The translations under genes and the position numbers were made by a program. From contig NC_086108.1 in NCBI RefSeq assembly GCF_963921235.1, positions 26,662,001-26,726,000 of the forward strand: a stretch of 64,000 nucleotides of DNA. Reading direction: 5' to 3'. Positions 14,140 through 64,000 of this stretch are shown here, in pieces. The first letter of the stretch is position 1, and each line of letters opens with the position of its first letter. Below the pieces are notes generated by a model. The model was not told the DNA's origin. It ran no database searches and saw only the letters and a list, made by a program, of their open reading frames with translations. The DNA is from Mobula hypostoma. Its lineage: Eukaryota.

Positions 14140-14625
14140 CGCACACTCTCCATTTCTGTATTTCCATTGTGTCCCTCCCCTTCTATCACAACCCACCTCC
14201 TCTGTAGCTGCATCAGACCTCCGTAACTTGAACATCGATTTCTCGAATTTCTGGGAATGGTCTCCACTGGTCCTTTCACCTTTCCCCATCCCCTTTTCTC
14301 TCTCTCACCTTACCTCCTTGCCTCCCTCTGGTGCTCCTCCCCTTTTTCTTTCTTCCATGGCCTTCTGTCCTCTCCCATCAGACTCCCCCCTTCTCCAGCC
14401 CTGTATGTCTTTCACCAATCAACTTCCCAGCTTTTTACTTCATCCCTCCCCCTCCCATCACCTATCACCTCGTGTTTCTCCCTCCCCTCCCCCACCTTTT
14501 AACCCTACTGTCAGCTTTCTTACTCCAGTCCTGCTGAAGGGTCTCGGCCCGAAACATTGACTGTACTCTTTTCCATGAACGCTGCGTGGCCTGCTGAGTT
14601 ACTCCAGCATCTTGTGCATGTTACT
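14140..14625 (+). mobile_element. Penelope-like 3' end with decayed hammerhead
   Basis: NIDFSNF C-terminus, pyrimidine-rich UTR, cagtcctgctgaagggtctcggcccgaaacattgactg (hammerhead with core and cleavage-site substitutions). Confidence 0.8.
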
Positions 14626-16408
14626 CTGTGACTTGCCTTTGCCAATATGAATAGAGCTTTAGAAATAACTGGGTTGTTTCAGCCTTCACATTTAATGCAT
14701 AATGTATACAGTATATTCCAACATATAGCGACATTATTACTGTTATTTTGTTGATTTGTAAACAACACATCATCAATCATTGTATCAGATGGCCTTCCCT
14801 TGAGAAATGATTCTAATGTAATACATAAGATGGACGGACCTTTTGATGGAAGGGAAGTCAGTGTGGGTGGCTCCAGATATCACCCTTTTACAGACTATGT
14901 CAATGCATTTATAAAAGCCTTGTTCAATAGGGCCAAGCTATTGAAATCCATCAGCTTTCTCTCTGTCAAATGCATTGTAATGGATCCTTACAGGGTGATG
15001 AACTATTCATTGTTGCTACATAACTGCAATACACGATCACACCCACAGGAAAGATTTGTTTGCCAAACACTGCTCACTTCACTTGCAGAAAGCAATGAGA
15101 ATATTGGCTCCTATCATTTATTTACAAGTCCTTGATGCTGCTGTTCCACTAGCAGCTCCTGAGCTCCATTCAGTGTTTTCTTTTGCTGTGGTCTTCTAGC
15201 AAAGATTGCAGACTCTCGTTGCTAGTGCCTTATTGGAGTGGTGCTGTCAGGGACCACCGACTGCTGAAGCAGTGAATACTGGTCATTATTTATTCGTGTA
15301 CCTAATATTGTAATATTTACTTTTGTTTGACAGTTTTCTTGGAGTGAAAATGTGTTTAAGACAGTAGGAAGCACAATAGCCATGTTTGACTCTGGCTGAT
15401 CACAGTTGGTCAGCTGAACTCAATCATCAATTACTGGGATCAAAGAGGCCAGTTAGCTTTCTGTCTGCTCATCTGTCTGCCTATCCTCCTGACTTTCTGT
15501 TCATCTGTCCGAATGCCTATCTGTCTCTGACTGCCTGAAAGAGTTTGACAGACTCAGCGGAGCACCAGACAACTTGCCTTCTCATCAGGCTCTGGCTCCA
15601 CGCATTGTGGATTATTCAGCTAGAAAATAGATGTTTGTGTCATTTTCTGAAAGTTTTAACAGGACGAAAACCATTCTCCATTGAAATCTGTCTAACTTTT
15701 CCAGCTCAGCATTATTCAAAATTTACTGGTGTCCTTTGCACAGATAATGGTAGCATCAACATGTGTGAGACTCCCCTTTGCTGGACTCTAAGAAATTAGA
15801 TCAAAGATGTGCATCTATCATCATAGTTTTCAATTCACAGTGGGAAAGAGCAAACCTCACTTTATGCCCCTAAAGAAACATGAATTAAAGGGTCTGGTTA
15901 TCAATGTGTAGCTAACTGCACCAACCTACCTTATTTCTTAAATGTTCTGCATATTTCAAAAATTATTTCTGAGTCTTACTCGGTTTATAATTTGAATGCA
16001 AATTATTCAGCAATCCTGAAATAAAACCAAAAGTGCTCAGCATGTTGAGTAGATGAAGAGGACCAGAGTCAACCGTTTAGGTCAATGATCTTTCTTCCAA
16101 GCTGAGAAAACATAGAACCCCAATATGTTTTGAGTTGCAGAGAAAAAGGACAAGTGAGCTATCAGTTAGTTTTTGTACTTTTACACAGTACTTTTTGCAG
16201 CTAAGCACAGCATTGACAACTGTTGTGATCCCAGCATGGGGGAGGTACCTAGGCCTCTCAGTAATTTGGGGACCCACAACAAGATGGGACTGAATCTGGG
16301 TGAGTTATGGCCTTATGCACTAAGCACACTAAATGATGAAGCCACACTCAGGTTGGAGAAACAACACCTTACATTCCATCTGGGTAGCCTCCAACCTGAT
16401 GGCATGAC

Positions 16409-17907
16409 TTCAAAACTCGTTAGATTCTGGACTAGTTCCTGAGGATTGGAGGGTGGCTAATGTAACCCCACTTTTTAAAAAAGGAGGGAGAGAGAAACCG
16501 GGGAATTATAGGCCGGTTAGCCTAACGTCGGTGGTGGGGAAACTGCTGGAGTCAGTTATCAAGGATGTGATAACAGCACATTTGGAAAGCGGTGAAATGA
16601 TCGGACAAAGTCAGCATGGATTTGTGAAAGGAAAATCATGTCTGACGAATCTCATAGAATTTTTTGAGGATGTAACTAGTAGAGTGGATAGGGGAGAACC
16701 AGTGGATGTGGTATATTTGGATTTTCAAAAGGCTTTTGACAAGGTCCCACATAGGAGATTAGTGTGCAAACTTAAAGCACACGGTATTGGGGGTAAGGTA
16801 TTGGTGTGGGTGGAGAATTGGTTAGCAGACAGGAAGCAAAGAGTGGGAATAAACGGGACCTTTTCAGAATGGCAGGCGGTGACTAGTGGGGTACCGCAAG
16901 GCTCAGTGCTGGGACCCCAGTTGTTTACAATATATATTAATGACTTGGATGAGGGAATTAAATGCAGCATCTCCAAGTTTGCGGATGACACGAAGCTGGG
17001 TGGCAGTGTTAGCAGTGAGGAGGATGCTAAGAGGATGCAGGGTGACTTGGATAGGTTGGGTGAGTGGGCAAACTCATGGCAGATGCAATTTAATGTGGAT
17101 AAATGTGAAGTTATCCACTTTGGTGGCAAAAATAGGAAAACAGATTATTATCTGAATGGTGGCCGATTAGGAAAAGGGGAGGTGCAACGAGACCTGGGTG
17201 TCATTATACACCAGTCATTGAAAGTGGGCATGCAGGTACAGCAGGCGGTGAAAAAGGCGAACGGTATGCTGGCATTTATAGCGAGAGGATTCGAGTACAG
17301 GAGCAGGGAGGTACTACTGCAGTTGTACAAGGCCTTGGTGAGACCACACCTGGAGTATTGTGTGCAGTTTTGGTCCCCTAATCTGAGGAAAGACATCTTT
17401 GCCATAGAGGGAGTACAAAGAAGGTTCACCAGATTGATTCCTGGGATGGCAGGTCTTTCATATGAAGAAAGACTGGATGAACTGGGCTTGTACTCGTTGG
17501 AATTTAGAAGATTGAGGGGGGATCTGATTGAAACGTATAAGATCCTAAAGGGATTGGACAGGCTAGATGCAGGAAGATTGTTCCCGATGTTGGGGAGGTC
17601 TAGAACGAGGGGTCACAGTTTGAGGATAGAGGGGAAGCCTTTTAGGACCGAGGTTAGGAAAAACTTCTTCACACAGAGAGTGGTGAATCTGTGGAATTCT
17701 CTGCCACAGCAAACTGTTGAGGCCAGTTCATTAGCTATGTTTAAAAGGAAGTTAGATATGGCCCTTGTGGCTACAGGGGTCAGGGGGTATGGAGGGAAGG
17801 CTGGGTTCTGAGTTGGATGATCAGCCATGATCATAATAAATGGCGGTGCAGGCTCGAAGGGCCGAATGGCCTACTCCTGCACCTATTTTCTATGTTTCTA
17901 TGTTTCT
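16409..17907 (+). mobile_element. Young 5'-truncated CR1 LINE
   Basis: Uninterrupted RT ORF, CR1 3' UTR and (TTCTATGT)n tail at ~17888-17907. Confidence 0.95.
16453..17811 (+). CDS. CR1 ORF2 reverse transcriptase domain, 5'-truncated (452 aa open)
   Basis: NYRPVSLTS, QHGF, YLDFQKAFDKVPH, GVPQGSVLGP, KFADDTKL. Confidence 0.92.
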   Translation: MANVTPLFKKGGREKPGNYRPVSLTSVVGKLLESVIKDVITAHLESGEMIGQSQHGFVKGKSCLTNLIEFFEDVTSRVDRGEPVDVVYLDFQKAFDKVPHRRLVCKLKAHGIGGKVLVWVENWLADRKQRVGINGTFSEWQAVTSGVPQGSVLGPQLFTIYINDLDEGIKCSISKFADDTKLGGSVSSEEDAKRMQGDLDRLGEWANSWQMQFNVDKCEVIHFGGKNRKTDYYLNGGRLGKGEVQRDLGVIIHQSLKVGMQVQQAVKKANGMLAFIARGFEYRSREVLLQLYKALVRPHLEYCVQFWSPNLRKDIFAIEGVQRRFTRLIPGMAGLSYEERLDELGLYSLEFRRLRGDLIETYKILKGLDRLDAGRLFPMLGRSRTRGHSLRIEGKPFRTEVRKNFFTQRVVNLWNSLPQQTVEASSLAMFKRKLDMALVATGVRGYGGKAGF

Positions 17908-19067
17908 CTAACTTCCGCTAAGGCTCTACCTCCCCCTCGTACCCCATCTGTTACTTATTTTTATGCACACATTCTTTCTCTCACTCTCCTTTTTCCCCCT
18001 CTGTCCCTCTGAATATACCTCTTGCCCATCCTCTGGGTCCGCCCCCCCCTTGTCTTTCTTCCCGGACCTCCTGTCCGATGATCCTCTCGTATACCCTTTT
18101 GCCTATCACCTGTCCAGCTCTTGGCTCTATCCCTCCCCCTCCTGTCTTCTCCTATCATTTTGTATCTCCCCCTCCCCTTCCCACTTTCAAATCTCTTACT
18201 AACTCTTCCTTCAGTTAGTCCTGACAAAGGATCTTGGCCTGAAACGCCGACTGCACCTCTTCCTACAGATGCTGCCTGGCCTGCTGCATTCACCAGCAAC
18301 TTTGCTGTGTGTTGCTTGAATTTCCAGCATCTGCAGAATTCCTGTTGTTTACACTAAACCCCTCTGCATTTTTGTTCACACTCACAACAGTTCTATTGTG
18401 ACTGATTTAGAAAGAGCATTTTAAAGCTAAGACCCATTTCTCATGCACTGAGTATTGTTTGAAAACTCTCTTGTGCTACTTTTCACTGAGAAAATTAACT
18501 AGGGCAGAGGTACTAACAATTTGCCTTTATTAAAGGCAGTCGACTGAAGCAGTTATTGCACAGACTCAGAACTTACTGTACATGCAACACACACGTCACA
18601 GGGAGGGGTGATGGTTTATTGTCTTAGAAAATCATCAGGTTTTTTTCAGAAATCTGAAACTATTGGAAAATGCATTGTATTTTCTATGTATTACAGTATT
18701 TACTCAAATGTACACATTGTATTTTCTATGTTTACTATGTAACCACTGCTAGCTGAATAGAAGGTATTCACTATGTAGCCATGACTTTTGACCTGATCAC
18801 TATTAATTCATGAAGAGAACTAGAATGAAACCAAGTAGAAAGATAACGGTGGAGAGTAAGGTGATGAAATATGCTGCAGTATGTCAACGCAAGACTAATT
18901 AAGAAATAACTGTGGTTAGGGATGAGAGGACATATGGTCTAAAATGTAAACTAGGACATAATTAAGTTGGGGAGTAAAACAATAGTGGAAAGTCGAGAGC
19001 AGATATATTGATGATATGTAATCACAGGCCGACTGGATATGATAATGTAGCTAAGATAAGAAATTGC

Positions 19068-19074
19068 TATAAAA
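19068..19074 (+). promoter_or_regulatory. TATA box of the ERV 5' LTR
   Basis: TATAAAA at the expected U3 position; the 3' LTR has TACAAAA at the same site. Confidence 0.65.
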
Positions 19075-19150
19075 AATACTGTATACAAGTTTCATACATC
19101 AAAGTTGCTGGTGAACGCAGCAGGCCAAGCAGCATCTATAGGAAGAGGCG

Positions 19151-19188
19151 CAGTCGACGTTTCAGGCCGAGACCCTTCGTCAGGACTA
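19151..19188 (-). ncRNA. Minimal type I hammerhead ribozyme (Penelope-associated), core intact
   Basis: Minus strand reads AGTC-CTGACGA-AGGgtctcggCCT-GAAAC-GTC-GACT: stem I, core, stem II, palindromic stem III and GUC site. Confidence 0.8.
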
Positions 19189-19480
19189 ACTGAAGGAAGA
19201 GTGAGTAAGGGATTTGAAAGCTGGAGGGGGAGGGGGAGATGCAAAATGATAGGAGAAGACAGGAGGGGGAGGGATAGAGCCGAGAGCTGGACAGGTGATA
19301 GGCAAAAGGGGATACGAGAGGATCATGGGACAGGAGGTCCAGGAAGAAAGATGGGGGGGGGGTGACCCAGAGGATGGGCAAGAGGTATATTCAGAGGGAC
19401 AGAGGGAGAAAAAGGAGAGTGAGAGAAAGAATGTGTGCATAAAAATGAGTAACAGATGGGGTACGAGGGGGAGGTGGGGC

Positions 19481-21804
19481 CTAGCGGAAGTTAGAGAAGT
19501 CAATGTTCATGCCATCAGGTTGGAGGCTACCCAGACGGAATATAAGGTGTTGTTCCTCCAACCTGAGTGTGGCTTCATCTTTACAGTAGAGGAGGCCGTG
19601 GATAGACATGTTGGAATGGGAATGGGATGTGGAATTAAAATGTGTGGCCACTGGGAGATCCTGCTTTCTCTGGCGGACAGAGCGTAGATGTTCAGCAAAG
19701 CGGTCTCCCAGTCTGCGTCGGGTCTCACCAATATATAAAAGGCCACATCCGGAGCACCGGACGCAGTATATCACCCCAGTCGACTCACAGGTGAAGTGAT
19801 GCCTCACCTGGAAGGACTGTTTGGGGCCCTGAATGGTGGTAAGGGAGGAAGTGTAAGGGCATGTGTAGCACTTGTTCCGCTTACACGGATAAGTGCCAGG
19901 AGGGAGATCAGTGGGGAGGGATGGGGGGGACGAATGGACAAGGGAGTTGTGTAGGGAGCGATCCCTGTGGAATGCAGGGGGGGGGAGGGAAAGATGTGCT
20001 TAGTGGTGGGATCCCGTTGGAGGTGGCGGAAGTTACGGAGAATAATATGTTGGACCCGGAGGCTGGTGGGGTGGTGGGAGGATGGAGTGAGAGCAGATGT
20101 ACGTGAAATGGGGGAGATGCGTTTAGGAGCAGAGTTGATAGTGGAGGAAGGGAAGCCCCTTTCTTTAAAAAATGAAGACATCTCCCTCGTCCTAGAATGA
20201 AAAGCCTCATCCTGAGAGCAGATGCGGCGGAGACGGAGGAATTGCGAGAAGGGGATGGCGTTTTTGCAAGAGACAGGGTGAGAAGAGGAATAGTCCAGAT
20301 AGCTGTGAGAGTCAGTAGGCTTATAGTAGACATCAGTGGATAAGCTGTCTCCAGAGACAGAGACAGAAAGATCTAGAAAGGGGAGGGAGGTGTCGGAAAT
20401 GGACCAGGTAAACTTGAGGACAGGGTGAAAGTTGGAGGCAAAGTTAATAAAGTCAACGAGTTCTGCATGCGTGCAGGAAGCAGTGCCAATGCAGTCGTCG
20501 ATGTAGCGAAGGAAAAGTGGGGGACAGATACCAGAATAGGCACGGAACATAGATTGTTCCACAAACCCAACAAAAAGGCAGGCATAGCTAGGACCCATAC
20601 GGGTGCCCATAGCTACACCTTTGGTTTGGAGGAAATGGGAGGAGCAAAAGGAGAAATTATTAAGAGTAAGTACTAATTCCGCTAGACGGAGCAGAGTGGT
20701 GGTAGAGGGGAACTGATTAGGTCTGGAATCCAAAAAGACGCGTAGAGCTTTGAGACCTTCCTGATGGGGGATGGAAGTATATAAGGATTGGACATCCATG
20801 GTGAAAATAAAGCGGTGGGGGCCAGGGAACTTAAAATCATCGAAAAGTTTAAGAGCGTGAGAAGTGTCACGAACATAGGTCGGAAGGGATTGAACTAGGG
20901 GTGATAAAACAGTGTCGAGGTATGCAGAAACGAGTTCGGTGGGGCAGGAGCAAGCTGAGACAATAGGTCGGCCAGGACAGGCAGGTTTGTGGATCTTGGG
21001 TAGGAGGTAGAAACGGGAAGTGCGGGGTGTGGGAACTATAAGGTTGGTAGCAGTGGATGGGAGATCCCCTGAGCGGATAAAGTCGGTGATAGTGTGGGAG
21101 ACAATGGCCTGGTGCTCCTTAGTGGGGTCACGATGGAGGGGTAAATAAGAGGAGGTATCCGCGAGTTGTCGCTGTGCCTCGGCAAGGTAGAGGTCAGTAC
21201 GCCAGACTACAACAGCACCCCCCTTATCAGCGGGTTTAATAATAACGTTAGGATTAGTGCGGAGGGAGTGGAGAGCAGAGCGTTCCGAAGGAGTGAGGTT
21301 GGAATGGGGACAAGGTGCGGTGAAGTCGAGACGGTTGATGTCCCGTCGGTAATTAGCGATAAAGAGATCCAGAGCAGGCAGAAGACCAGAGCGGGGTGTC
21401 CATGAAGAAGAGGAGGGTTGAAGACAGGAGAAGGGGTCATCGGTGGGGGTGGAAGAGTCCTTGCCGAAGAAGTAGGCTCGGAGACGGAGACGGCGGAAGA
21501 AAAGTTCCGCATCATGGCGAACATGGAACTCGCTGAGGTGTGGGCGAAGGGGGACAAACGTGAGGCCCTTACTGAGAACAGAGCGCTCTGCCTCCGACAG
21601 TTGAAGGTCGGAGGGGATGGTAAAGACCTGGCACGGATGAGAGCTGGGATCAGAGGGGGGAGGGGGGAGGCTGGGGGTGTCAGTGGAGAGGGGAGGCTGG
21701 GGGTGAGAGGAAGATGGAGCCTCTGAGGGCCCAGGAGTTGACGGTGGGATCTGAGGAAGACGGGGCTGCGGAGTGGTGGTGGGGGAAGGGGAGACGGGAG
21801 TCAC
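19481..21804 (-). pseudogene. Penelope RT plus GIY-YIG endonuclease, frameshifted
   Basis: 666 aa ORF (KPADKGG, MDVQSLYTSI, GVAMGT, RYIDD) and separate 108 aa ORF (GVIYCVRC..C...YIGET.R.L..RF.EH); 39 bp and ~4 bp deletions relative to the right arm. Confidence 0.9.
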
Positions 21805-21942
21805 AACAGCAGCACATAAAGACCCAGTCTGGAGTTCAAGGCTGGAGTCGCAGTTGGTGGTTGCGCAATCGCTGTGAAGGTGTCCATGGTCGTTGCTGGA
21901 GTCCGGGTTTTGAATATGTCCTGAGGTGTTGGAGCCGCCGTC

Positions 21943-24474
21943 ATGTTAGGCAAAGATCGCAAGATCTTACATCTACGGACTCCAGAGCCTGCCGGCCCCG
22001 ACGCTAGCAGGCATGAACTTTCAATTGCGGCCTCTGCCATTGATCTCGGCGGCTCCAACACCTCAGGACATATTCAAAACCCGGACTCCAGCAACGACCA
22101 TGGACACCTTCACAGCGATTGCGCAACCACCAACTGCGACTCCAGCCTTGAACTCCAGGCCGGGTCTTTATGTGCTGCTATTGTGACTCCCGTCTCCCCT
22201 TCCCCCACCACCACTCTGCAACCCCGTCTCCCTCAGATCCCACCGTCAGCTCCTGGGCCCTCAGAGGCTCCATCTTCCTCTCACCCCAACCCTCACCTCT
22301 CCACTGACACCCCCAGCCTCCCCCCTCTCCCCTCTGATCCCAGCTCTCATCCGTGCCGGGTCTTTACCATCCCCTCCGACCTTCAACTGTCGGAGGCAGA
22401 ACGCTCTGTTCTCAGTAAGGGCCTCACCTTTGTCCCCCTTCGCCCACACCTCAGTGAGTTCCGTGTTCGCCATGATGCGGAACTTTTCTTCCGCCGTCTC
22501 CGTCTCCGAGCCTACTTCTTCGGCAAGGACTCTTCCAATCCCACCGATGACCCCTTCTCCTGTCTTCAACCCTCCTCTTCTTCATGGACACCCCGCTCTG
22601 GTCTTCTGCCTGCTCTGGATCTCTTTATTGCTAACTGCCGACGGGACATCAACCGTCTCGACTTCACCGCACCTTGTCCCCATTCCAACCTCACTCCTTC
22701 GGAACGCTCTGCTCTCCACTCCCTCCGCACTAATCCTAACGTTATTATTAAACCCGCTGATAAGGGGGGTGCTGTTGTAGTCTGGCGTACTGACCTCTAC
22801 CTTGCCGAGGCACAGCGACATCTCGCGGATACCTCCTCTTATTTACCCCTCCATCGTGACCCCACTAAGGAGCACCAGGCCATTGTCTCCCACACTATCA
22901 CCGACTTTATCCGCTCAGGGGATCTCCCATCCACTGCTACCAACCTTATAGTTCCCAAACCCCGCACTTCCCGTTTCTACCTCCTACCCAAGATCCACAA
23001 ACCTGCCTGTCCTGGCCGACCTATTGTCTCAGCTTGCTCCTGCCCCACCGAACTCGTTTCTGCATACCTCGACACTGTTTTATCACCCCTTGTTCAATCC
23101 CTTCCGACCTATGTTCGTGACACTTCTCACGCTCTTAAACTTTTCGATGATTTTAAGTTCCCTGGCCCCCACCGCTTTATTTTCACCATGGATGTCCAAT
23201 CCTTATATACTTCCATCCCCCATCAGGAAGGTCTCAAAGCTCTACGCGTCTTTTTGGATTCCAGACCTAATCAGTTCCCCTCTACCACCACTCTGCTCCG
23301 TCTAGCGGAATTAGTACTTACTCTTAATAATTTCTCCTTTTGCTCCTCCCATTTCCTCCAAACCAAAGGTGTAGCTATGGGCACCCGTATGGGTCCTAGC
23401 TATGCCTGCCTTTTTGTTGGGTTTGTGGAACAATCTATGTTCCGTGCCTATTCTGGTATCTGTCCCCCACTTTTCCTTCGCTACATCGACAACTGCATTG
23501 GCGCTGCTTCCTGCACGCATGCAGAACTCGTTGACTTTATTAACTTTGCCTCCAACTTTCACCCTGTCCTCAAGTTTACCTGGTCCATTTCCGACACCTC
23601 CCTCCCCTTTCTAGATCTTTCTGTCTCTGTCTCTGGAGACAGCTTATCCACTGATGTCTACTATAAGCCTACTGACTCTCACAGCTATCTGGACTATTCC
23701 TCTTCTCACCCTGTCTCTTGCAAAAACGCCATCCCCTTCTCGCAATTCCTCCGTCTCCTCCGCATCTGCTCTCAGGATGAGGCTTTTCATTCTAGGACGA
23801 GGGAGATGTCTTCATTTTTTAAAGAAAGGGGCTTCCCTTCCTCCACTATCAACTCTGCTCTTAAACGCATCTCCCCCATTTCACGTACATCTGCTCTCAC
23901 TCCATCCTCCCACCACCCCACTAGGAATAGGGTTCCCCTGGCCCTCACCTACCACCCCACCAGCCTCCGGGTCCAACATATTATTCTCAGTAACTTCCGC
24001 CACCTCCAATGGGATCCCACCACTAAGCACATCTTTCCCTCTCCCACTCTCTCTGCATTCCGCAGGGATCGCTCCCTACACAACTCCCTTGTCCATTCGT
24101 CCCCCCCATCCCTCCCCACTGATCTCCCTCCTGGCACTTATCCGTGTAAGCGGAACAAGTGCTACACATGCCCTTACACTTCCTCCCTTACCACCATTCA
24201 GGGCCCCAAACAGTCCTTCCAGGTGAGGCATCACTTCACCTGTGAGTCAACTGGGGTGATATACTGCGTCCGGTGCTCCCGATGTGGCCTTTTATATATT
24301 GGTGAGACCCGACGCAGACTGGGAGACCGCTTTGCTGAACATCTACGCTCTGTCCGCCAGAGAAAGCAGGATCTCCCAGTGGCCACACATTTTAATTCCA
24401 CATCCCATTCCCATTCCAACATGTCTATCCACGGCCTCCTCTACTGTAAAGATGAAGCCACACTCAGGTTGTAG
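21943..24474 (+). CDS. Penelope RT-GIY-YIG polyprotein (843 aa open), probably defective
   Basis: PLE RT motifs, C..C..C linker and GIY-YIG domain; catalytic motif reads YIDN; TAG at 24472 where the left arm has Glu. Confidence 0.88.
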   Translation: MLGKDRKILHLRTPEPAGPDASRHELSIAASAIDLGGSNTSGHIQNPDSSNDHGHLHSDCATTNCDSSLELQAGSLCAAIVTPVSPSPTTTLQPRLPQIPPSAPGPSEAPSSSHPNPHLSTDTPSLPPLPSDPSSHPCRVFTIPSDLQLSEAERSVLSKGLTFVPLRPHLSEFRVRHDAELFFRRLRLRAYFFGKDSSNPTDDPFSCLQPSSSSWTPRSGLLPALDLFIANCRRDINRLDFTAPCPHSNLTPSERSALHSLRTNPNVIIKPADKGGAVVVWRTDLYLAEAQRHLADTSSYLPLHRDPTKEHQAIVSHTITDFIRSGDLPSTATNLIVPKPRTSRFYLLPKIHKPACPGRPIVSACSCPTELVSAYLDTVLSPLVQSLPTYVRDTSHALKLFDDFKFPGPHRFIFTMDVQSLYTSIPHQEGLKALRVFLDSRPNQFPSTTTLLRLAELVLTLNNFSFCSSHFLQTKGVAMGTRMGPSYACLFVGFVEQSMFRAYSGICPPLFLRYIDNCIGAASCTHAELVDFINFASNFHPVLKFTWSISDTSLPFLDLSVSVSGDSLSTDVYYKPTDSHSYLDYSSSHPVSCKNAIPFSQFLRLLRICSQDEAFHSRTREMSSFFKERGFPSSTINSALKRISPISRTSALTPSSHHPTRNRVPLALTYHPTSLRVQHIILSNFRHLQWDPTTKHIFPSPTLSAFRRDRSLHNSLVHSSPPSLPTDLPPGTYPCKRNKCYTCPYTSSLTTIQGPKQSFQVRHHFTCESTGVIYCVRCSRCGLLYIGETRRRLGDRFAEHLRSVRQRKQDLPVATHFNSTSHSHSNMSIHGLLYCKDEATLRL

Positions 24475-24847
24475 GAACAACACCTTATATTCCGTCTGGG
24501 TAGCCTCCAACCTGATGGCATGAACATCGACTTCTCTAACTTCCGCTAAGGCCCCACCTCCCCCTCGTACCCCATCTGTTACTCATTTTTATGCACACAT
24601 TCTTTCTCTCACTCTCCTTTTTCTCCCTCTGTCCCTCTGAATATACCTCTTGCCCATCCTCTGGGTCACCCCCCCCCCACCTTGTCTTTCTTCCTGGACC
24701 TCCTGTCCCATGATCCTCTCGTATCCCCTTTTGCCTATCACCTGTCCAGCTCTCGGCTCTATCCCTCCCCCTCCTGTCTTCTCCTATCATTTTGCATCTC
24801 CCCCTCCCCCTCCAGCTTTCAAATCACTTACTCACTCTTCCTTCAGT

Positions 24848-24885
24848 TAGTCCTGACGAAGGGTCTCGGCCTGAAACGTCGACTG
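24848..24885 (+). ncRNA. Minimal type I hammerhead ribozyme (Penelope-associated), core intact
   Basis: AGTC(24849-52) CTGACGA(24853-59) AGG..CCT GAAAC GTC(24878-80) GACT; predicted cleavage after C24880. Confidence 0.8.
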
Positions 24886-25047
24886 CGCCTCTTCCTATAG
24901 ATGCTGCTTGGCCTGCTGCGTTCACCAGCAACTTTGATGTATGTTGCTTGAATTTCCAGCATCTGCAGAATTCCTGTTGTTTGCGTATACAAGTTTCAAT
25001 GGGCGGTCAGCTACTAGCTTTCTGATTGTCTCAGCTTTGATTTGCAA

Positions 25048-25053
25048 ATTAAA
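25048..25053 (+). terminator. Candidate LTR polyadenylation signal ATTAAA
   Basis: Present at the same position in both LTRs, downstream of the TATA box and upstream of a GT/T-rich U5. Confidence 0.55.
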
Positions 25054-25788
25054 GTTTAAAACATCTTGACGAGTTTTCTGCGTCTCCTTGTCGTTTGTGA
25101 GAAACGAGAAACCATGATAAAATTGGCCTAACAAACAGAATCGGATAGAGACCTGCGAGGAAGGGAACGGCAGATTGGGATGCTTCCCGGTCCCTCGGGG
25201 ACCCTCACGGGGCTAACAGAATTAAAGGTGCACCCAAAGAAAAAAGGTGAGCGCTTTTTGCGATAATTCGGACTAAGAATTCTGTTGGTTTTGGGGGGTC
25301 TCGGGGACTCAGAAGTGTGAAACAACTGCCGAAGGGTCTCTCCGATCCAAAGAACCTGGCAGAATTGGGGATAAAAGGAGGCTCAGAGGATTAATCAAGA
25401 GCACGGCAGTGGGGGTAAGTACGAATAAAGTAATAATATGTTAAGTAAGAAAATTCCACGTGGTGTTGGTAAGTCCCTGTGGATACCGCTTCGCATGAAA
25501 CGAAGGTCTGAACAGGCAGGGAAGGAGAATTAAAAATCCTCGTGAATACCGCCTTAAGAAGTGTAAGGGAGGTGTAAAAGGAAAAAGTTCTGTGGATACC
25601 ACCCTAAGTAGAGGTCTGCACGGGCAGAACGTAATAAGAGATAAAGATAGTTTAATAGATAATTCAGACGCTGGTGAAATAAACCATAAGGCTAGGCATA
25701 GAAATAGAATTAGAGAAATAGTATTATTAAATAGGCAAGTAGTGAGATTCTAAGAATACCATAATAGAAAAAGGAAAAAGAGAACAAC

Positions 25789-27765
25789 ATGACAGAGAAA
25801 GGAACAGCAGTAGAAATATTGAGCAGAAAATTCCCGGTGTGTAAAGGTAAGATCGCAGAAATTTCAGAAAAATGGGAAAAAAGAACTAAAAAACTGGTCA
25901 CGAAATGGCCAAGAGAAGGAACGTTTGATGTAAGCTTATGTGAGGAAATGGAAGTGCTAATTAAAAATCACAAACCCAAAGATAAATCTAAGAAAAGAGA
26001 GAAAAATGGGAACAAGAAATGGAAGTGTTAAAACTCTTTAGGATGGAGGGAGAAAGGTTAAGAAAGACGGGGAGTATATTAATAGTAAGTAAAAAAGACA
26101 CTGAGAAACGAAAGGAGCAGTCTGATAAAGAAAAGGAGAAGCATAACAGGGGGCCGGCTTCAGCTCTATACCCAGACCTGAAAGACGTAGAGAAACCTCC
26201 TCCCTATTACGAGAAAGAAACCCTCAAGCAGTGTCTGATGATAACAGGAAGAGTGGATCTAAATGGAGAAATTAAAGTCTGGGATACCGAGGAGGAAAGA
26301 AAGAATCACGAGAAGGAGCAGGAGGAACTATGGAAGGTAATAGAAGAAGACAGGGCAAAGATAGAACAGGAGAAAAGGGAAATAGAAGAAGAGATCAAAG
26401 GGTTACAGGAATTAAAAGTGAAAAGGGATGAAGAGAAATCTTTGTTATATGGGAACGGAACTGAACAGGCTAGAGCAGAAGGTAACTTGTCGGGAGAGCA
26501 AGAGTTAAGCAGCGAAAGAGAGGGTGCAGGTGAGTGTAGGTAGAGGATAGGAGATAGGAGCCTTGAAGGGGAAAAAGAGAGTGAAAAGGCAGATATTAGA
26601 AACAGAGGAAGAGATTAGGAAATTACAGCAGAGAATGAATTTCCAACGGGAGTTTGAAGATTTTGCATGGGCTCAAGCAAACGCTAGCTCAAGGCAGAAA
26701 GGAAGAACTCCACGAGGAGGCCAAGGGAGAAAGGAAACCCCGGAAAGAATCATGTGGCAGCCAGTAAAAACGTGCTCAGAAACAGATGGGGAGTCAGGCG
26801 AGGAAGAGAGTCAGGAGATGTGGGAAAGGAAAGGGAGAATGATGCCGTTGTTAGTAAAAGGATTGGGACAAGTACAGTATATTCCTTGGGGATCCCAGGA
26901 CCTGGAAGGGCTGAAAAACACCCTGCCCAGCCTACATGAGGGTGCAGGGAAGTGGATTAGGGCCTTTGAGGAAGAAACCATGGGACAAATGTTGGCTATG
27001 GGAGATTTGAAGGCGCTGCTGATAAGGCTGATGGGAACCTCCAAACTACAAGAGCTGATGGAAGTGGCTGGCATACAGAATGTGGACAGCACACTGATTG
27101 ACGGGGCCAGATTTGACACAGTGTGGCAGAAGGTATGGGGGGCCCTCAGGGAGCTCTATCCACCCAAAATGGACCCCAAAGCCATGAAAGGGGATCCACT
27201 GGGAGACACTGAAAATTCAGCAGCCTATATAGAAAATCAGTTGAAAAGGTGGAGACTGGAAACTGAACAAGAAGTGGAAGGCAACCCGTTTATGACCTGG
27301 ATGTTCCAAAATACCGTTTTGGATGCAATGCCTCCCCAAGTTAAGTCTAATCTTGAGGAAGTGGTTGGACTGATCTCAATGACCCCACAGGAATTCAGGG
27401 ACCACGTAGTCCATGCGGTCGAAAAATATAGAAAAGACAAACGAAAGTTGACTGAGCAGAAAGAAGAAGTGAAAAGAAAGCTGATACAAATGCAGCTTGA
27501 AGAGCTTAAAAAGAAGGAAAAAGAAAAAGGCAAGAAGATGCTGCCAGCAATGACCAATTTAAGCACAGCCGTTAAAGTGAATGAAATGCCATTATATGGA
27601 GGGACTGGTCATGCCGTAAGACAGAGCCTGGAAAACCCCATGCCAATAATAAACGTCTTTGGGGGAGCTTTTCTGCAAATGCTCTATCAGGGACAGGATA
27701 AATTTAAACAGCAGCACAGACAGGACTAGAAATCCCAGGGAGGGGGGCAGAGAGGTTATGGGCAG
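25789..27765 (+). pseudogene. gag: Retroviral gag, disrupted
   Basis: Consecutive ORFs 25789-26031, 26019-26543 (ALYPDL, PPPY late domain) and 26563-27729 (capsid-like YIPW...DL..LK..LP...GAGKWI..FEE); position between PBS and env. Confidence 0.8.
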
Positions 27766-27865
27766 GAAGGACCCTTTACAGTAACCAAAGCATCACCCAT
27801 CGCAGTTCAAGTAGAAGGACGCTCCACCTGGTCTATCATCTCAGTCACTGCACTAGAGCAGTTCC
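27766..27865 (+). pseudogene. pol: Integrase C-terminal (GPY/F) remnant of pol
   Basis: EGPFTVTKASPIAVQVEGRSTW / YHLSHC. Confidence 0.75.
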
Positions 27866-28023
27866 GCAGGTACAGTCAGGTGGGCCACCCGAGGTAAGTG
27901 GTGAAGAGGAACAAACAGTAGAGGACAGACAAGAGCAACAAGAAGCTGATACTGAACCATAGGAACTTGACCAAGTAATAAGGGAAATTTTTAGTCCTGA
28001 GGACAGGCCAGAAGACCCTAAGG

Positions 28024-29655
28024 ATGGGGTTATGGATGGTAGTACTCTTTCAGATAATAGGGACAACTTGAGGGCGACAAGTCCTGCGCCCCGGGATGAT
28101 ACACTCAGATACTCTCGTGCAGATTTGGAGACCATTAATTTGGCAGATGTGGCATGGGACTGTTAGGATCCCACAAAACCGGAGAGAAAGGAGTAAGAGG
28201 AGCACAACGGTTACCTCCGTACCATGGTACCAGAACATGTGATACCAATGGGCAAATTATACAGCAGGGATGATGAAGAGACAGAATTGTTATCTATGCT
28301 CAAGGGCAAGTCTGGTGCAATATGTAGTCCCCATGCCTTATAACTCCTCCTCCTGCACGCAATGGCGAAAGGAGTGGAGGGGGCAGTGTGCGCAGCAGTG
28401 TCCAAGTGTAGTCAAGACCTGCAGCATGGGAATTTGTAGCGGGACGGATCCTTGTTATCAGAAATGTATTGATAACACCCCATATTGCCCTTATTGGTGT
28501 ATGTTATACCAGGCTTCCTCGCAGTTTGATCAAAATAAGCTTGCCTCTAACTGTAATTACAGCAGACCGTGGGCTATAAATAAAATAAGCCAGACACCCA
28601 CATTGGGAAAGCTTAAAATGCAGGAACATTTGAGTTATGAACGTTTCACGCGGACAGGTGACCTCTCGGTTGGGCATTTCAATGGCAACTGTGTTAAGAT
28701 TTGGGATGTAACCCCAGGCCGAAGATACCAGACAGGTGCCCCTCTGCCCGAGGGTGCACTGAACTCCCAGACCATCCCATTAGGAGATACCTGGTGGCTG
28801 TGTGGACAGGAGGGGGGTCTGAGATCCACGCTTCCCTGTAATTGGGCGGGTACATGTACGCGTGTTATGCTGATTCAAAAAGTTGTAGTATCCCCTGAAA
28901 TACAGTTTGACACCTCGAGGCAACAGACACTAAAACAGAGGAAGAGAAAATATGAGCCCGACCTGACGATTCGGATCAATAGTATAGGACAGCCGAGGGG
29001 TATACCTAATGAGTTTAAGGCAAGAAATAAGATTGCTGCGGGCTGGGAAGCACTTATACCTGTGATAGGGGTTAGCAAAAATGTTGAATGGATAAATTAT
29101 ATGTATTATAATCAGCAGAGATTCATTAACTACACCGATGATGCACTAGAGGCTTTGAGACAGCAGATAGATGCAACCAGTAGAGTGGCGTGGCAAAATA
29201 GACAGGTACTAGACTGGCTATTGGCAGAGAAAGGAGGGGTTTGTGTAATGTTTGGGGAACAGTGCTGTGCTTTTATACCGAATAACACTAGTCCGGAGGG
29301 ATCATTTACCAGAGCAATGAATAAACTGAAAAATCTAAGAAAGGAAGTTAATCAAAATGCAGGGTTTGGACACCAGTTCTTTGACTGGTTAAATAGTAAA
29401 CTAGGAGGATGGGGAGCATGGCTGACTGAGATTGCAGTAACCATTGGTATTGTATTACTAAGCTGTGCGGTCATTCTGTGCTGTTTTCTTCCATGCCTCA
29501 AGTCGCTTGTAGTGCGAGCTGCAATGAAACGGTTTCCGATGCTTCTGGAAATTATTGGGTCGAGCCCTATGGAGAAGGAGGCACCGATGATGTATTCGTA
29601 CAGTCTACGAGACACGCAAGACGAACAGGAGAGAGATGAAATATGTGGGGATTAG
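28024..29655 (+). pseudogene. env: Retroviral envelope (gamma-type); open 28270-29655, with two in-frame TGA upstream
   Basis: Signal-like MGLWMVVLFQII at 28024, CYLC, RKRK furin site, IGQPRGIPNEFKARNKIAAG fusion region, QNRQVLDWLLAEKGGVC immunosuppressive domain, CX6CC, TM helix. Confidence 0.9.
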
Positions 29656-29885
29656 ACTGTGAAGGCTCCTGAGTCTTTTTCCCTGTCTCAGATACGAAGG
29701 GATGGGTTTTTGGCTCAGCGGCCTAGGGAGGTAGGAAGAGAACACTTTGAGTCCTAAGCGCAGGAAACTATAGTTTAACCCAAATTTGGGAGTAAATGCG
29801 GGGCTTTATTTGAGCTTTTGTGCATAGACTGTCAGTCCTCTCTCTCTCTCTGTATGAGACCCTGTGGGTCTCAAAAGGCAGATTA

Positions 29886-30448
29886 TATTGGAAAATGCAT
29901 TGTATTTTCTATGTATTACAGTATTTACTCAAATGTACACATTGTGTTTTCTAAATTTACTATGTAACCACTGCTAGCTGAATAGAAGGTATTCACTATG
30001 TAGCCATGACTTTTGACCTGATCACTATTAATTCATGAAGAGAACTAAAATGAAACCAATTAGAAAGATAACGGTGGCAAGTTAGGTGATGAAATATATG
30101 GCAGTATGTCAACACAAGACTAATTAAGAAATAACTGTGGTTAGGGATGAGAGGACATATGATCTAAAATGCAAACTAGGACATAATTAAGTTGGGGAGT
30201 AAAACAATAGTGGAAAGCCGAGAGTGGATATATTGATGATATGTAATCACAGGCCGACTGGATATGATAATGATAATGATAGCTAAGATAGGAAAATTGC
30301 TACAAAAAATGCTGTATACAAGCCTCACCGGGCAGTCAGCTACTAGCTTTCTGATTGTCTCAGCTTTGATTTGCAAATTAAAGTTTAAAATGTCTTGACG
30401 AGTTTTCTGCGTCTCCTTGTCATTTGTGAGAAACGAGAAACCACGACA
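29886..30448 (+). repeat. ERV 3' LTR
   Basis: tattggaaaatgc...gaaaccacgaca; preceded by aaaaggcagatta. Confidence 0.92.
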
Positions 30449-44890: not shown

Positions 44891-45739
44891 TGCTGTCCTC
44901 ACCACCAACTCAATCTGCAACCTAAAAATCCAAGTACACGATATCCACTGATTTTCCGTTAGTCTACCCTGCTTGTTATTTCTTCAAAGAATTCCAACAA
45001 ATTTGTCAGGAAAGACTTTTCCTTGAGGAAACCATTTTGATTATGACCTATTCTCTATCCATACTAGTAACTTTCCTGTAATACCATGGGCTCTTTTTAT
45101 GGTTAGTTACAATTTATTAATGTGACATACATCTTTTATGCAAATAGAAGTAAATATTTTATATTAATATGGATGTGCTAGTTTGTAGATAGATAATCTG
45201 TGTGTTCTATGAGTAAAGATTTGGGGAAAGTATGTTTCCATTATGAGCAAGGATGGGAACAAAATGGTTTCGGGTGGATGATCCAGGCACAAAGGGAATG
45301 AAAGACTGAGTATAGGAAGTGGGCCTAAGGGAGAAAATGACAATTGTTTTGGAAATTAGCTCAAGCAGCTACTGACTGAGATCTGTTTCTTTTCTTTATG
45401 TTTGCATGTTCTAAGCAATCCCAGCCTAATCAGAGACATGAGAAACAAGGAGTGGGATGCAAAAGAATTAAATTATTCATTCATTTAATATTTAACTTTG
45501 CAAAAGATGATGGGAAGACAGCAGGAAAAGAAAAGCATTTTATCCTAGCTTCTTGCTTAATAATTCTGTTTATCTATTAGCTACAAATCAGCAATTACAT
45601 AAACCCTAAAGTTTGCAACAGGTATAATAGGTTAAATAAGCAGGATCATGCAAGAGAACAGTTATGCATCAAATTAAATCTCTCTTGGCATCATGAAATG
45701 TTAATGGTCATTCAGTTGGCAGAACAAATAGATAAAGCT

Positions 45740-51766: not shown

Positions 51767-54700
51767 AAACCATAAAGCCATGAGATATCGTGGCAGAATT
51801 AGGCCATTTGGCCCATTGAGTATGCTCTTTCATTTCACCATGGTGTTTCAATTTTCCTCTCAGACCCATTCGCCTGTCTTCTCCCCGCATCCCTTTATGC
51901 CCTGATCAATCAACAATCTATCAACCTCTGCCTTAAATATACATAAAGACTTGGCCACCACAGCTGTCTGTGGCAAAGAATTCCACAGATTTACCACTCT
52001 TTGGCTAAAGAAATTCCTACTTATTACTGTTCTAAAAGGACATCTCTCTATTGTGAGGCTGTATCCTTAAGTCAGGCTCTCCCATCATAGGACACATCCT
52101 CTCCACACCCACTCTATCAAGGCTTTTCACGATTCTATAGGTTTCAATGAGGTTAGGCCTTTTCTTTTGAATTCTAGTAAATACAGGCCCAGAGCCATCA
52201 GATGTTCTTCATATAACAAGCCAATCAATCCTGGAATCATTTTTGTGAAGCTTCTTTGAACCCCCTCCTGTTTCAACACAACCTATCTAAGATAAGGGGC
52301 CCAACTCTGCTCACAATACTCCAAGTTAAGCCTCACCAGTGCTTAATAATGTTTCAACACTACATCCTTGCTTTTATATTCCAGTCCTTTTGAAATGAAT
52401 GCAAACATTGCACTTGCCTTCTTCACCACAGACTCAATTACAAATTAATCTTTAGGGAATCCTGCACAAGGACTTCTAAATCTCTTTCTGCCTCAGTTTT
52501 TTGTATCATCTTAACAATTAGAAAATAGTCAACCCGTTCATTTCTTCTACCAATGTCAATGATTATACACTTCCCGATACTGTATTCCATCTATTTCTTT
52601 GTTAATTCTCCTAATCTGTCTATGTCCTCTGTAGCCCCTCTACGTTCTCAATAGTAACTGCCCCTCCAACTATCTTCAGGTCATCTGCAAACGTTGCAAC
52701 AAAGCCATCAATTCCAGCATCCAAATCATTGATAAGTAACATAAAATGAATCGGTCCCAACACAGACCCCTGTGGAACACCACTAGTCAACGGCTCCCGT
52801 TACGCCAACTCTTTGCCTCCTGCCAATCAGCCACAGCTTTACCCATGCTTGAATCTTTTCTGTAATACCATGGGCTCACAACTTGTTAAGCAGCCTCCTG
52901 TGTGATACCTTGTCAAATACACAACGTCAACCGATTCTCATTTGTCTATCCTGCCTGAAATTTCTTCAAAGAATTCCAACAAATTTCTCAGGCAAGATTT
53001 TTCCTTGCGGAAATCACACTGACTATGAACTATTTTGTCATGAGCCTCCAAGTACCCTGAGCCCTCATCTTTAATAATCGATTCTAACATCTTCCCAACC
53101 ACTGAGGTCAGACTAACTGCCTATAGTTTCCTTTCTTTTGCCTCTCTCCTTTCTTGAAGAGTGGAGTGACATTTCCAAATTTCCAGTCTTCTGGAACCAT
53201 TCCAGAATCTAGTCATTCTTGAAAGATCATTACGAATGCCTTCACAATAGCTTCAGCCACCTCTTTCAGAACTCTGGAGTGTAACACCATCTGGTCCAGG
53301 TGACTTATCTACCTTCAGACCTCTCAGTTTCCCAAGAACCTTCTCTCTAGTTATAGTAACCTCTCACACTTCATGATCCCAACTCCTGGAGCTTCCACCA
53401 TACTGCTCGTGCCTTCCACAGTGAAAACTGATGCAAAATACTTATTCAGTTCATCCACTACTTCATTGTCCCTCATTACTACCTCTGCAGCATTGTTTTC
53501 TAGCTGTCTGATATCCACTCTCGCCTTTTTTTACACTTGATGTATCTGAAGGGACTTTTGGAATCCTCTTTAATATTATTGGCTTGCTTACTTTTGTATT
53601 CCATCTGTACCTTCTTAAGGACATTTTTAGTGGCCTGTGGTTAAATTTTAAAATCTTCCCAATCCTCTAACTTCCCACTAATCTCTGCTCTATTATATGC
53701 ACTCTCTTTGGTTTTTATGTCGGCTTTGACTTCTCTTGTTAGCCAAGGTTGTCTGATCTTTCCTTCAGAATACTTCTTCCTCTTTGGGATGTACATATTC
53801 TGTGCCTTTCAAATTGCTTCCAGAAATTCCAGCTATTGCTGCTCTGCTGTTGGCCCTACCAGTGTTCTTTTCCAATTAATTCAGGCCAGTTCCTCTCTCA
53901 TGCCTCTGTAATTCCCCTTACTCTACTGTAATATTGTTACATCTGACTTGAGCTTCAAGGTGAATTCGATCATATGATCACTTACCCCTCAGGATTCTTT
54001 TACCTTAAGCTCACTAAACAATTCTGGTTCATTGCACAACACCCAATCCAGAATAGCTGATCTTCTGCTGGGCTCAACCGCAAATTATTCTAAAATGACT
54101 CCTCAAAGGGACTTCAGAAATTCCCCCTCCTGTAATCCAGCACCAACCTGATTTTCCAATCTGCGTGCATATTGGTGTCCCCCTTGACTAGTGTAGCAAT
54201 GCCCTTATGTAATGCAGTTTTTATCACTCATTGTAAATTGTAGGCCACATCCTTACTACTGTTAGGGGTTATGTAAACAACTCCCATCAGGGTCTTTTTA
54301 CCCTTGCAGCTACTTAGCTCTATCCATAATGTTTCACCAATTTCCAACCTTATGCCACCTCTTTGTAATGATTTGATTTCATTTTTACTAACAAAGCAAT
54401 GGGTATCCCTGGACATTAAGCTTCCAGCTATAATTCTTCAGCCATGGTTCAGTGATACCTATACTGAGCGCATTCGGAAACAATACCTTCAGTCCTCTAT
54501 TCACAGTTTTCGATTTTGTCACACCATGCTCAAGCTTTTGATTCCTAACTTTGTCTGAGGTCTTACCAATATCTGCCTCCACAACCTCTCCACAAACTGG
54601 TCTGGCACTCTGGTTCCTATCCCCTTGCAACTAGAGTTTAAACCCCACCATGCAGCATTAACAAACCTTCCCGCTAGGATATTAATCCCCCTCCAATTCT

Positions 54701-63200: not shown

Positions 63201-64000
63201 TCTGCTAGCATCCTTACCAGCATTCTTTTTCAATCTGTTCTGGCCAACTCCTCTCTCATGCCTCAGTAATTCCCCTTATCCCACTGTGATACTGATACAT
63301 CTGACATTAGCTTCTCCTTCTCAAACTTCTGGGTGAATTCAGTCTTATTATGATGCTTTCCCTCAGGGTACTTTTATCTTTAGCTCTCTAATCAATTCTG
63401 GTTCATTGCACAATACCCAATCCAGAGTAGCCGATCCCCTAGTGGGCTCAACCACGAGCTGCCCTAAAAAGCCATCTTGTAGACACTCTAGAAATGCCCC
63501 CTCCTGGAATCCAGCATCAACCTGATTTTCACTATCTACTTGTATATTGATTACTCCTTCATTATTGTAACATTGCCCTTTTGGCATACATTTTCTGTCT
63601 CCCATTGTAATTTGTAGACCACGTCCTTACCACTGTTTAGGAGACTGTATGGATTTCCCATTAAGGTCTTTTCACCCTTGAAGTTCCTTAGCTCTATCCA
63701 CAGCAATTCAACATGTTCCACCTTATGCCACCTCTTTCTAATGATTTGAGTTCATTTTTTACTGACAGTGCAACACCACCCCCTTGTCTTCCTGTCTGTC
63801 CTTTTGATACAATGTGTGCCCTCGTACGTTAAGCTCCTAGCTATAATCTTTTCTCAGCCATGATTCAATCATGCCTACAATATCATACCTGCCAATCTGC
63901 AATTGTGCTACAAGTTCAGCTACCTTATTTTGCACACTGTACGCATTCAAATATTACACCTTCAATGTTGTATTCACCCTTTTCGTGTTTGTCTGCCTTT
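60296..64000 (-). mobile_element. Older CR1 LINE interrupted by a young antisense CR1
   Basis: IFQESLDSG...[21 protein letters not shown]; collinear with 51767-55560 on both sides of the insertion. Confidence 0.88.
61842..63156 (+). mobile_element. Young 5'-truncated CR1, sister of 16409-17907
   Basis: Nearly identical to 16566-17907; small deletion near 62418 and a frameshift near 62706; (TTCTATGT)n tail. Confidence 0.95.

Follow-up and report, generated by a model that had tools for sequence, protein, structure and literature searches.

What does it mean for two nearly identical, inverted copies of a transposon to lie directly behind a retroviral promoter, and how did they come to be there? 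The question is raised by a 64,000-nucleotide (nt) stretch of the Mobula hypostoma genome (RefSeq assembly GCF_963921235.1, contig NC_086108.1, positions 26,662,001 to 26,726,000 of the forward strand; hereafter the window, numbered from its first letter). At 19095-24984 the window holds two Penelope-like element (PLE) copies that face each other as an inverted, head-to-head pair, placed within the 5' long terminal repeat (LTR) of what we read as an endogenous retrovirus (ERV). The original prediction had described this arrangement as a natural hairpin-RNA cassette. Our analysis points to a plainer answer: the geometry is real, its origin is ordinary, and the locus is another instance of the tandem and inverted insertions that PLEs make, behind an LTR TATA box by chance. 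Most probably, the pair arose by an ordinary single integration of an abundant, recently active PLE into the 5' LTR of an older, internally deleted ERV, with the hairpin potential as a by-product.

The two copies match each other far beyond chance. A repeat search returned collinear complementary arm segments of 1900, 524, 280, 135 and 103 nt, at 94-99% complementarity, between 19083 and 24953. The arms could pair within one molecule, a feature of hairpin-RNA source loci such as maize Mu killer or the Drosophila hpRNA genes: in a gapped alignment, 22047-24942 and the reverse complement of 19095-21940 share 2846 paired columns with 38 mismatches (98.66% identity), the longest perfectly matched stretch being 399 bp, and every one of the six gap openings (50 gap columns) shortens the left arm. 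Folded as RNA, the central 706 nt form one hairpin at -704 kcal/mol, compared with -290 +/- 7 in shuffles (z = -56).

Upon base-by-base reading, complementarity stops at 21940 and 22047, leaving a loop of 106 nt (21941-22046). A 62-nt spacer, as drawn by the repeat search with arm ends at 21962 and 22025, was rejected on this reading. We likewise rejected the loop as a foreign spacer, since 21941-22046 is matched at 99-100% in all 40 scored matches (39 other loci and its own). Rather, the loop is the 5' part of the sense copy that has no counterpart in the antisense copy, and it holds the ATG of the open reading frame (ORF) at 21943. At the other end, the sense copy extends to 24984 and the antisense copy to the equivalent of 24942-24944; a 42-nt 3' tail (24943-24984) is found on the right copy only. 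The whole pair is bounded by an identical 14-bp target-site duplication, GTATACAAGTTTCA, at 19081-19094 and 24985-24998. At the inner junction the two copies overlap by at most 1 nt, and there is no palindrome. The order that the original prediction had given (LTR TATA box, antisense arm, loop, sense arm, LTR poly(A) signal) can be read directly in the sequence, and its distances hold as well: the antisense arm starts at 19093-19095, that is 25-27 nt after the first T of TATAAAA at 19068, where 25 nt had been stated, and 64 nt separate the last element base (24984) from the ATTAAA at 25048, where about 65 nt had been stated. From left to right, the parts are as follows.

18661-19094 (+): 5' LTR, U3 part up to the insertion point, placed by the alignment of the two LTRs (LTR1/LTR2), with TATAAAA at 19068-19074 and the left target duplication at 19081-19094
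19095-21940 (-): antisense PLE copy (left arm), 5'-truncated at the equivalent of 22047, no 42-nt tail, ORF broken
21941-22046 (+): potential hairpin loop, formed by the 5'-most 106 nt of the sense copy, ATG at 21943
22047-24942 (+): right arm, the paired part of the sense PLE copy, ORF with predicted reverse transcriptase (RT) and GIY-YIG
24943-24984 (+): one-sided 3' tail of 42 nt, sense copy only
24985-24998 (+): right target-site duplication GTATACAAGTTTCA, 14 bp, a single site in LTR2 and in 29 of 29 other LTR copies
24999-25123 (+): rest of the 5' LTR, putatively R-U5 as judged from the TATA-to-ATTAAA spacing, ATTAAA at 25048-25053
25124-29885 (+): ERV internal region, env-like ORF at 28243-29655
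29886-30448 (+): 3' LTR (LTR2), TACAAAA at the TATA position, PLE target site empty, ATTAAA retained

Which element was inserted? By its predicted domains it is Penelope-like, with an RT followed by a C-terminal GIY-YIG. The right arm retains an open frame at 21925-24474 (849 amino acids from stop to stop, 843 from the ATG), in which Pfam places RVT_1 at residues 365-525 (19 bits, cut-off 29.6) and then GIY-YIG at residues 777-813 (18 bits, cut-off 22.6). The frame of the left arm is split into 713 and 172 codons and, on the minus strand, matches RVT_1 with 23.8 bits within 19804-21945 and GIY-YIG with 21.5 bits within 19481-19999. For the 843-amino-acid protein, the nearest ESM Atlas clusters (animal, score 0.96-0.97) carry HTH_animal, DUF8422, RVT_1 and GIY-YIG. 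An RT and then a GIY-YIG domain in a single ORF is the defining architecture of endonuclease-containing PLEs, according to PMC8557442.

The family to which the pair belongs is abundant, young and recently active. A family search with a 106-nt probe from the 5' end of the sense copy (21941-22046) gave at least 1416 first-look candidates at 99-100%, 40 of which were scored. Because 12 of the 12 other copies that were printed continue upstream of 21941 with a common 5' segment, both window copies are 5'-truncated; that segment measures 474-476 nt in 21 of the 37 loci examined. Over the whole window, no Rfam model, the hammerheads included, was matched at its gathering score, and at E up to 10 within 17800-25200 Rfam gave chance-level matches only (sR40 with 17.9 bits and mir-345 with 17.6 bits, both mirrored by the palindrome). 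By eye, we found a hammerhead-like core without helix III in both arms, about 100 nt from the 3' end, at 24848-24885 (+) and 19151-19188 (-). Its parts are helix I of 5 bp, then CTGACGA, a single additional base, a stem of 4 bp closed by the 4-nt loop CTCG, GAAAC and GTC; it is identical in 9 of 21 family copies, with the remainder differing by single changes. This candidate core resembles the minimal PLE hammerhead ('min-HHR') of PMC4209133.

What did the element insert into? LTR1 (18661-19094 plus 24999-25123) and LTR2 (29886-30448) are identical at 527 of 565 positions (93.3%), and the ORF at 28243-29655 matches the retroviral envelope family TLV_coat (57.7 bits against a cut-off of 22.5; 1.2e-15). 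Among seven plus-strand ORFs, no gag or pol family matched at E up to 1, and by eye we saw no convincing primer-binding site or flanking duplication of the ERV. In other family members the two LTRs lie about 9.4-9.5 kb apart, compared with about 5.9 kb in the window copy once the insert is left aside, from which we infer an internal deletion with about 4 kb missing. We therefore read the host as an ERV, that is, a genuine LTR element rather than a non-member, which appears env-only, internally deleted and decayed.

Its promoter region can be judged against relatives. The LTR family search gave at least 562 first-look candidates, and 29 other LTR copies were compared at the TATA position: 18 read TATAAAAA, five have TATAAAA with a gap of one base among the As, three read TATTAAA, and one each reads TACAAAA, TGTAAAA and TATGAAA. 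The predicted TATA box, carried by 23 of the 29 other copies, is a conserved feature of the LTR family. The 3' LTR of the same provirus has TACAAAA at 30300-30306, where the 5' LTR and most of the family have TATAAAA. The PLE target site is uninterrupted and single in LTR2 and in all 29 other LTR copies, and in an uninterrupted LTR the ATTAAA follows the TATA box by about 77 nt, a spacing that would suit the order U3-R-U5 if R measures roughly 50-70 nt. The insertion thus coincides with the predicted start site or precedes it by a few nt.

How unusual is such a pair within its own family? Using as probe nothing but the 106-nt 5' segment, which is neutral to the upstream sequence, we drew a sample of 29 loci and classified the 1.5 kb upstream of each.

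15 of 29 loci: direct 5'-truncated copy upstream (classical pseudo-LTR tandem)
5 of 29 loci (L020, L032, L033, L034, L040): inverted 5'-truncated copy abutting the sense copy
2 loci (L023, also among the 15 direct, and L038): inverted piece upstream of a direct partial copy
7 of 29 loci: no family sequence upstream
1 of 29 loci (L026): only an old 74% fragment upstream

In the five head-to-head loci the arms overlap by about 0.8 to at least 1.45 kb (two are cut by the locus edge), and the direct tandem partners of the 15 loci end at the equivalent of 24984, immediately upstream of a full 5' segment. As a rough extrapolation, scaling 5 of 29 to the at least 1416 candidates gives a couple of hundred head-to-head dimers genome-wide. 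An earlier sample of eight loci had contained four head-to-head pairs; its query held part of the inverted arm, which may have biased it, and two of the four pairs look like mutual duplicates. An inverted 5'-truncated partner is a standard PLE insertion product that recurs in this genome, and the view of the pair as a special 'cassette' does not survive the comparison.

A second near-full-length head-to-head dimer is located on contig 71 (10524637-10530277, loci L071 and L072) and is 95.5-97.7% identical to the window dimer. Its flanks are unlike those of the window pair and it has its own 13-bp target duplication, ACTAAATTACAAA, on which grounds we rejected it as a segmental duplication. Its tail is on the left (antisense) arm only, the opposite arm to that in the window, its sense arm carries a 270-nt deletion, and a small inverted filler occupies its inner junction. 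Among 40 scored of 1288 candidates, an 80-nt junction probe was fully covered only at the window and at contig 71. The two inner junctions lie within 5-20 nt of each other but differ over about 22 nt, and their near-coincidence hints at a preferred stopping place. At 5 of 37 loci (L008, L009, L020, L032 and L040, on contigs 52, 18, 9 and 2; four head-to-head dimers and one plain truncated copy) the sense copy has its 5' end in a 16-nt zone, 38-53 nt upstream of the equivalent of 21941. RNAs of the family may preferentially start in this zone.

The contig-71 dimer also bears on whether the palindrome was made by the assembly or the sequencing, for example from a chimeric fold-back read. Inverted PLE structures are known to trouble assemblies, as noted in PMC8557442 and PMC3846280. 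The arms at the window, however, differ by 38 substitutions and six indels, the left ORF is broken while the right one is open, and the ends of the pair are asymmetric, with a tail at one of them. Moreover, a perfect 14-bp duplication surrounds the pair at a site that is single in LTR2, and the independent dimer on contig 71 comes with a duplication of its own. We consider an artefact extremely improbable.

How, then, did two facing copies come to lie inside one target duplication? Because a single duplication surrounds the whole pair and element 3' ends form both outer borders, we infer one event in which both ends of the break were primed. In such an event, the GIY-YIG endonuclease would cut a staggered break 14 bp wide, and both 3'-OH ends would prime reverse transcription of PLE RNA, giving two complementary DNAs (cDNAs) that face each other. 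Both cDNAs would halt before the 476-nt 5' segment, one at 22047 and the other at 21941, and the two would be joined head-to-head with an overlap of at most 1 nt. The product would be an antisense copy, a 106-nt stretch belonging to the longer copy only, and a sense copy that alone bears the tail, with a single target duplication around the whole.

The two arms carry different subfamily haplotypes, an observation that is new here and suggests that two RNA templates took part in this single insertion event. Within 22047-23540 the arms differ at 26 sites, 13 of them private to each arm in comparison with 29 other copies. The family is polymorphic at 43 of the 1494 positions that can be compared, and seven of the 26 differences are at these sites, where about 0.75 would be expected (binomial estimate about 6e-6), and only two of these seven are of the CpG type. 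The right arm carries a linked T-A-C at 22217/22221/22230 that is also found in seven other copies, and the left arm carries a seven-site haplotype that is also found in five. In the contig-71 dimer, 6 of 19 arm differences are at polymorphic sites. Since the two arms bear different subfamily haplotypes, two RNA templates are probable.

The main alternative is self-priming, in which one cDNA folds back and primes its own second strand on one template. PMC3846280, where it discusses inverted PLE junctions, finds palindromes frequent there and interprets them as self-priming; here, the 5' region holds short palindromes, such as AAGATCTT at 21961-21968, and the inverted filler at the contig-71 junction is built from that same region. 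A single template, however, would give identical arms, whereas the arms of the window pair carry different linked subfamily haplotypes. In addition, the window junction has no palindrome, only a possible 1-nt overlap, and at both outer borders an element 3' end meets the target duplication, which is what priming from the two ends of the break would leave. Self-priming is for these reasons an unlikely origin of the pair.

Host and insert also differ in age. The two copies of the target duplication share GTTTCA where 24 of 29 LTR copies read GCCTCG; the changes are common to both, which places the divergence of the LTR before the arrival of the PLE. In agreement with this order, the LTRs are 93.3% identical and the arms 98.7%.

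Several points weigh against our account of an ordinary PLE integration primed at both break ends. Double priming is read from the anatomy of the insertion, and PMC3846280 favours self-priming in its treatment of such structures. The enrichment of arm differences at polymorphic sites could stem in part from mutation hot spots or from later gene conversion. Near-coincident inner junctions in two near-full-length dimers are not what random truncation predicts. Finally, all Pfam matches of both arms are below the curated cut-offs (18-24 bits), though they appear in the defining order of RVT_1 and then GIY-YIG.

The layout itself has close counterparts. In its description of PLE insertions, PMC8557442 presents an inverted 5'-truncated copy adjoining a full copy as typical, with a tail of 30-40 bp often at one end only. 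The corresponding account in PMC3846280 reports the same layout in a rotifer, with a 31-bp tail on one inverted repeat and the head-to-head form as the commonest arrangement. Canonical endonuclease-containing insertions (Penelope/Poseidon/Neptune type) likewise have one ORF with RT and then GIY-YIG, and they likewise have an inverted 5'-truncated copy at the 5' end, corresponding here to a pair with a 42-nt one-sided tail and target duplications of 13-14 bp. The partial tandems of canonical elements (pseudo-LTRs, pLTRs) are likewise present in most copies of this family (15 of 29), though not at the window locus. Unlike a canonical PLE, the window has no direct pLTR, only two inverted copies, and it has no match to an Rfam hammerhead model. 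At 2.85 kb, its inverted partner nearly equals the sense copy in length, whereas the arms in the remaining head-to-head loci of the sample measure about 0.8 to at least 1.45 kb.

A related chemistry operates in LINE-1 (L1) twin priming, where both 3'-OH ends of a staggered break prime reverse transcription and the inverted cDNAs are joined within one target duplication. In that process a single RNA is used, and part of a single copy is inverted, rather than two overlapping copies being formed. By contrast, the arms at the window overlap over 2.85 kb and apparently come from two templates. If it were the rule in PLE integration, two-RNA priming from one staggered break would be a concrete model for the PLE transposition cycle, which PMC8557442 calls undefined; the integration mechanism is described as unresolved in the papers cited. 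The window and contig-71 dimers are clean, young and near-full-length, with intact target duplications, one-sided tails and arms of two haplotypes, and as such they are natural material on PLE integration.

What would the pair do if it were transcribed? Any RNA read across the pair, whichever strand it came from, would be able to form about 2.85 kb of duplex, and by its position the pair would separate the provirus from its promoter. The original prediction had envisaged an RNA of about 5.9 kb containing this duplex. The duplex geometry (2846 columns, together with the computed fold) stands; the full length is not assured, because three poly(A) hexamers precede the loop on the plus strand (ATTAAA at 19634, AATAAA at 20446 and AATAAA at 20806). 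With a further ATTAAA at 22747, after the loop, the plus strand has four such hexamers, compared with 1.9 +/- 1.5 in shuffles, a number not above chance.

According to a functional reading, the U3 promoter fires and yields the 5.9-kb RNA, the duplex of which is processed into small interfering RNAs (siRNAs) or PIWI-interacting RNAs that target the PLE family, or serves as double-stranded RNA (dsRNA) for editing or sensing; the locus would then be a natural RNA interference construct like Mu killer. The geometry of promoter, arms and poly(A) signal is correct for this, and the TATA box is intact in the 5' LTR and conserved in its family. Neither arm has the 476-nt 5' segment of the element itself, which makes the LTR the closest candidate promoter on the plus strand. 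A target exists as well, in a PLE family that is young and abundant (at least 1416 candidates) and has an open sense ORF, and there are precedents in the siRNAs from Penelope inverted repeats in Drosophila melanogaster (reported in PMC3681739) and in the hairpin RNA proposed for Mu killer (PMC3440606). Set against these points, U3 has a CpG observed/expected ratio of 0.37 at 33% G+C, a value that would fit an old LTR methylated in the germline over a long time. From the predicted start site onward the insertion has taken the place of the original sequence, and the hexamers at 19634, 20446 and 20806 stand ahead of the loop. Furthermore, many other family dimers (5 of 29 sampled loci) would yield the same dsRNA, which leaves the window locus no special claim. 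The functional reading is plausible and of a kind already known; that this particular locus works in such a way seems improbable to us. Rather, the hairpin potential appears to be a by-product common to many dimers of the family, not a dedicated device.

A look-up of sequencing runs gave a signal of the family as a whole. It covered 24 runs, none of them recorded as RNA and their kind only guessed, the best having 0.52 of the sampled words, and four of them (short Logan contigs) were aligned to 18900-22100. Summed over words, the depth is about 600-1400 close to the loop and climbs to 180,000-405,000 near the element 3' end, a family-level rather than a locus-level signal. None among the listed pieces (there are 25,491 further pieces) bridges 19094|19095 or 21940|21941, and loose ends at 19095/19096 have other flanks; this result is neutral on transcription.

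The precedent in Drosophila is a direct one. In transformed D. melanogaster, rearranged Penelope copies with long inverted repeats give siRNAs of 21-22 nt that correspond exactly to the inverted regions, as PMC3681739 describes in its account of these copies. The element class and the inverted-repeat copy are the same as at the window, and the mechanism is that which the original prediction had proposed; with this account, the siRNA idea for Penelope inverted repeats is already in print. The fly is an insect with a dedicated siRNA pathway, and its small RNAs were measured, whereas the window belongs to an animal genome with ERVs. The candidate promoters differ too, with an LTR at the window and a transgene context in the fly.

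Maize Mu killer (Muk) resembles the window in its layout. PMC3440606 describes it as an inverted partial duplication of MuDR, with a proposed hairpin RNA of about 4 kb made by read-through from a flanking gene. As with the window pair, a natural partial inverted duplication of a transposon lies behind a foreign promoter; in Mu killer, the proposed hairpin RNA would feed siRNA production and silence the family. Mu killer differs in being a plant locus and derived from a DNA transposon, in having arisen by a rearrangement and not by normal insertion chemistry, and in that its silencing was shown genetically.

For a test of RNA silencing by PLE dimers in a vertebrate-type genome, as in flies, the locus is well marked by three unique junctions and 38 arm-diagnostic mismatches. 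A broader form of the idea would have the old LTR still firing and driving the 5.9-kb hairpin, while this and roughly a couple of hundred other dimers supply small RNAs that restrain the active PLE family in a built-in, self-limiting feedback; a related thought is that PLE integration routinely reverse-transcribes two RNAs from one staggered break. We regard this as quite a long shot.

Transposable elements are densely packed in the window around the pair. One is an older (93%) copy of the PLE, truncated at its 5' end, of which the last approximately 535 nt remain on the plus strand at 16332-16407 and 17904-18350; between its end and the LTR lie 310 nt. A 1.5-kb insertion (16408-17903) that encodes a different reverse transcriptase (RVT_1, 3.6e-34; ORF 16408-17811) interrupts this copy, and the insertion has a 97-99% identical copy at 61842-63154. 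The older PLE fragment is inverted relative to the left arm of the pair, with 90-95% complementarity at a distance of 761-1304 nt, and therefore forms with it a second, smaller hairpin potential. At 14409-14613 (+), a 71%-identical match to the PLE 3' region (24728-24934) probably stems from an older related family. Further repeat families, at 1-2300, 44900-45100, 52200-54400 and 60400-63800, are common to the window ends and the 52-64 kb region, at 70-90% identity and in both orientations.

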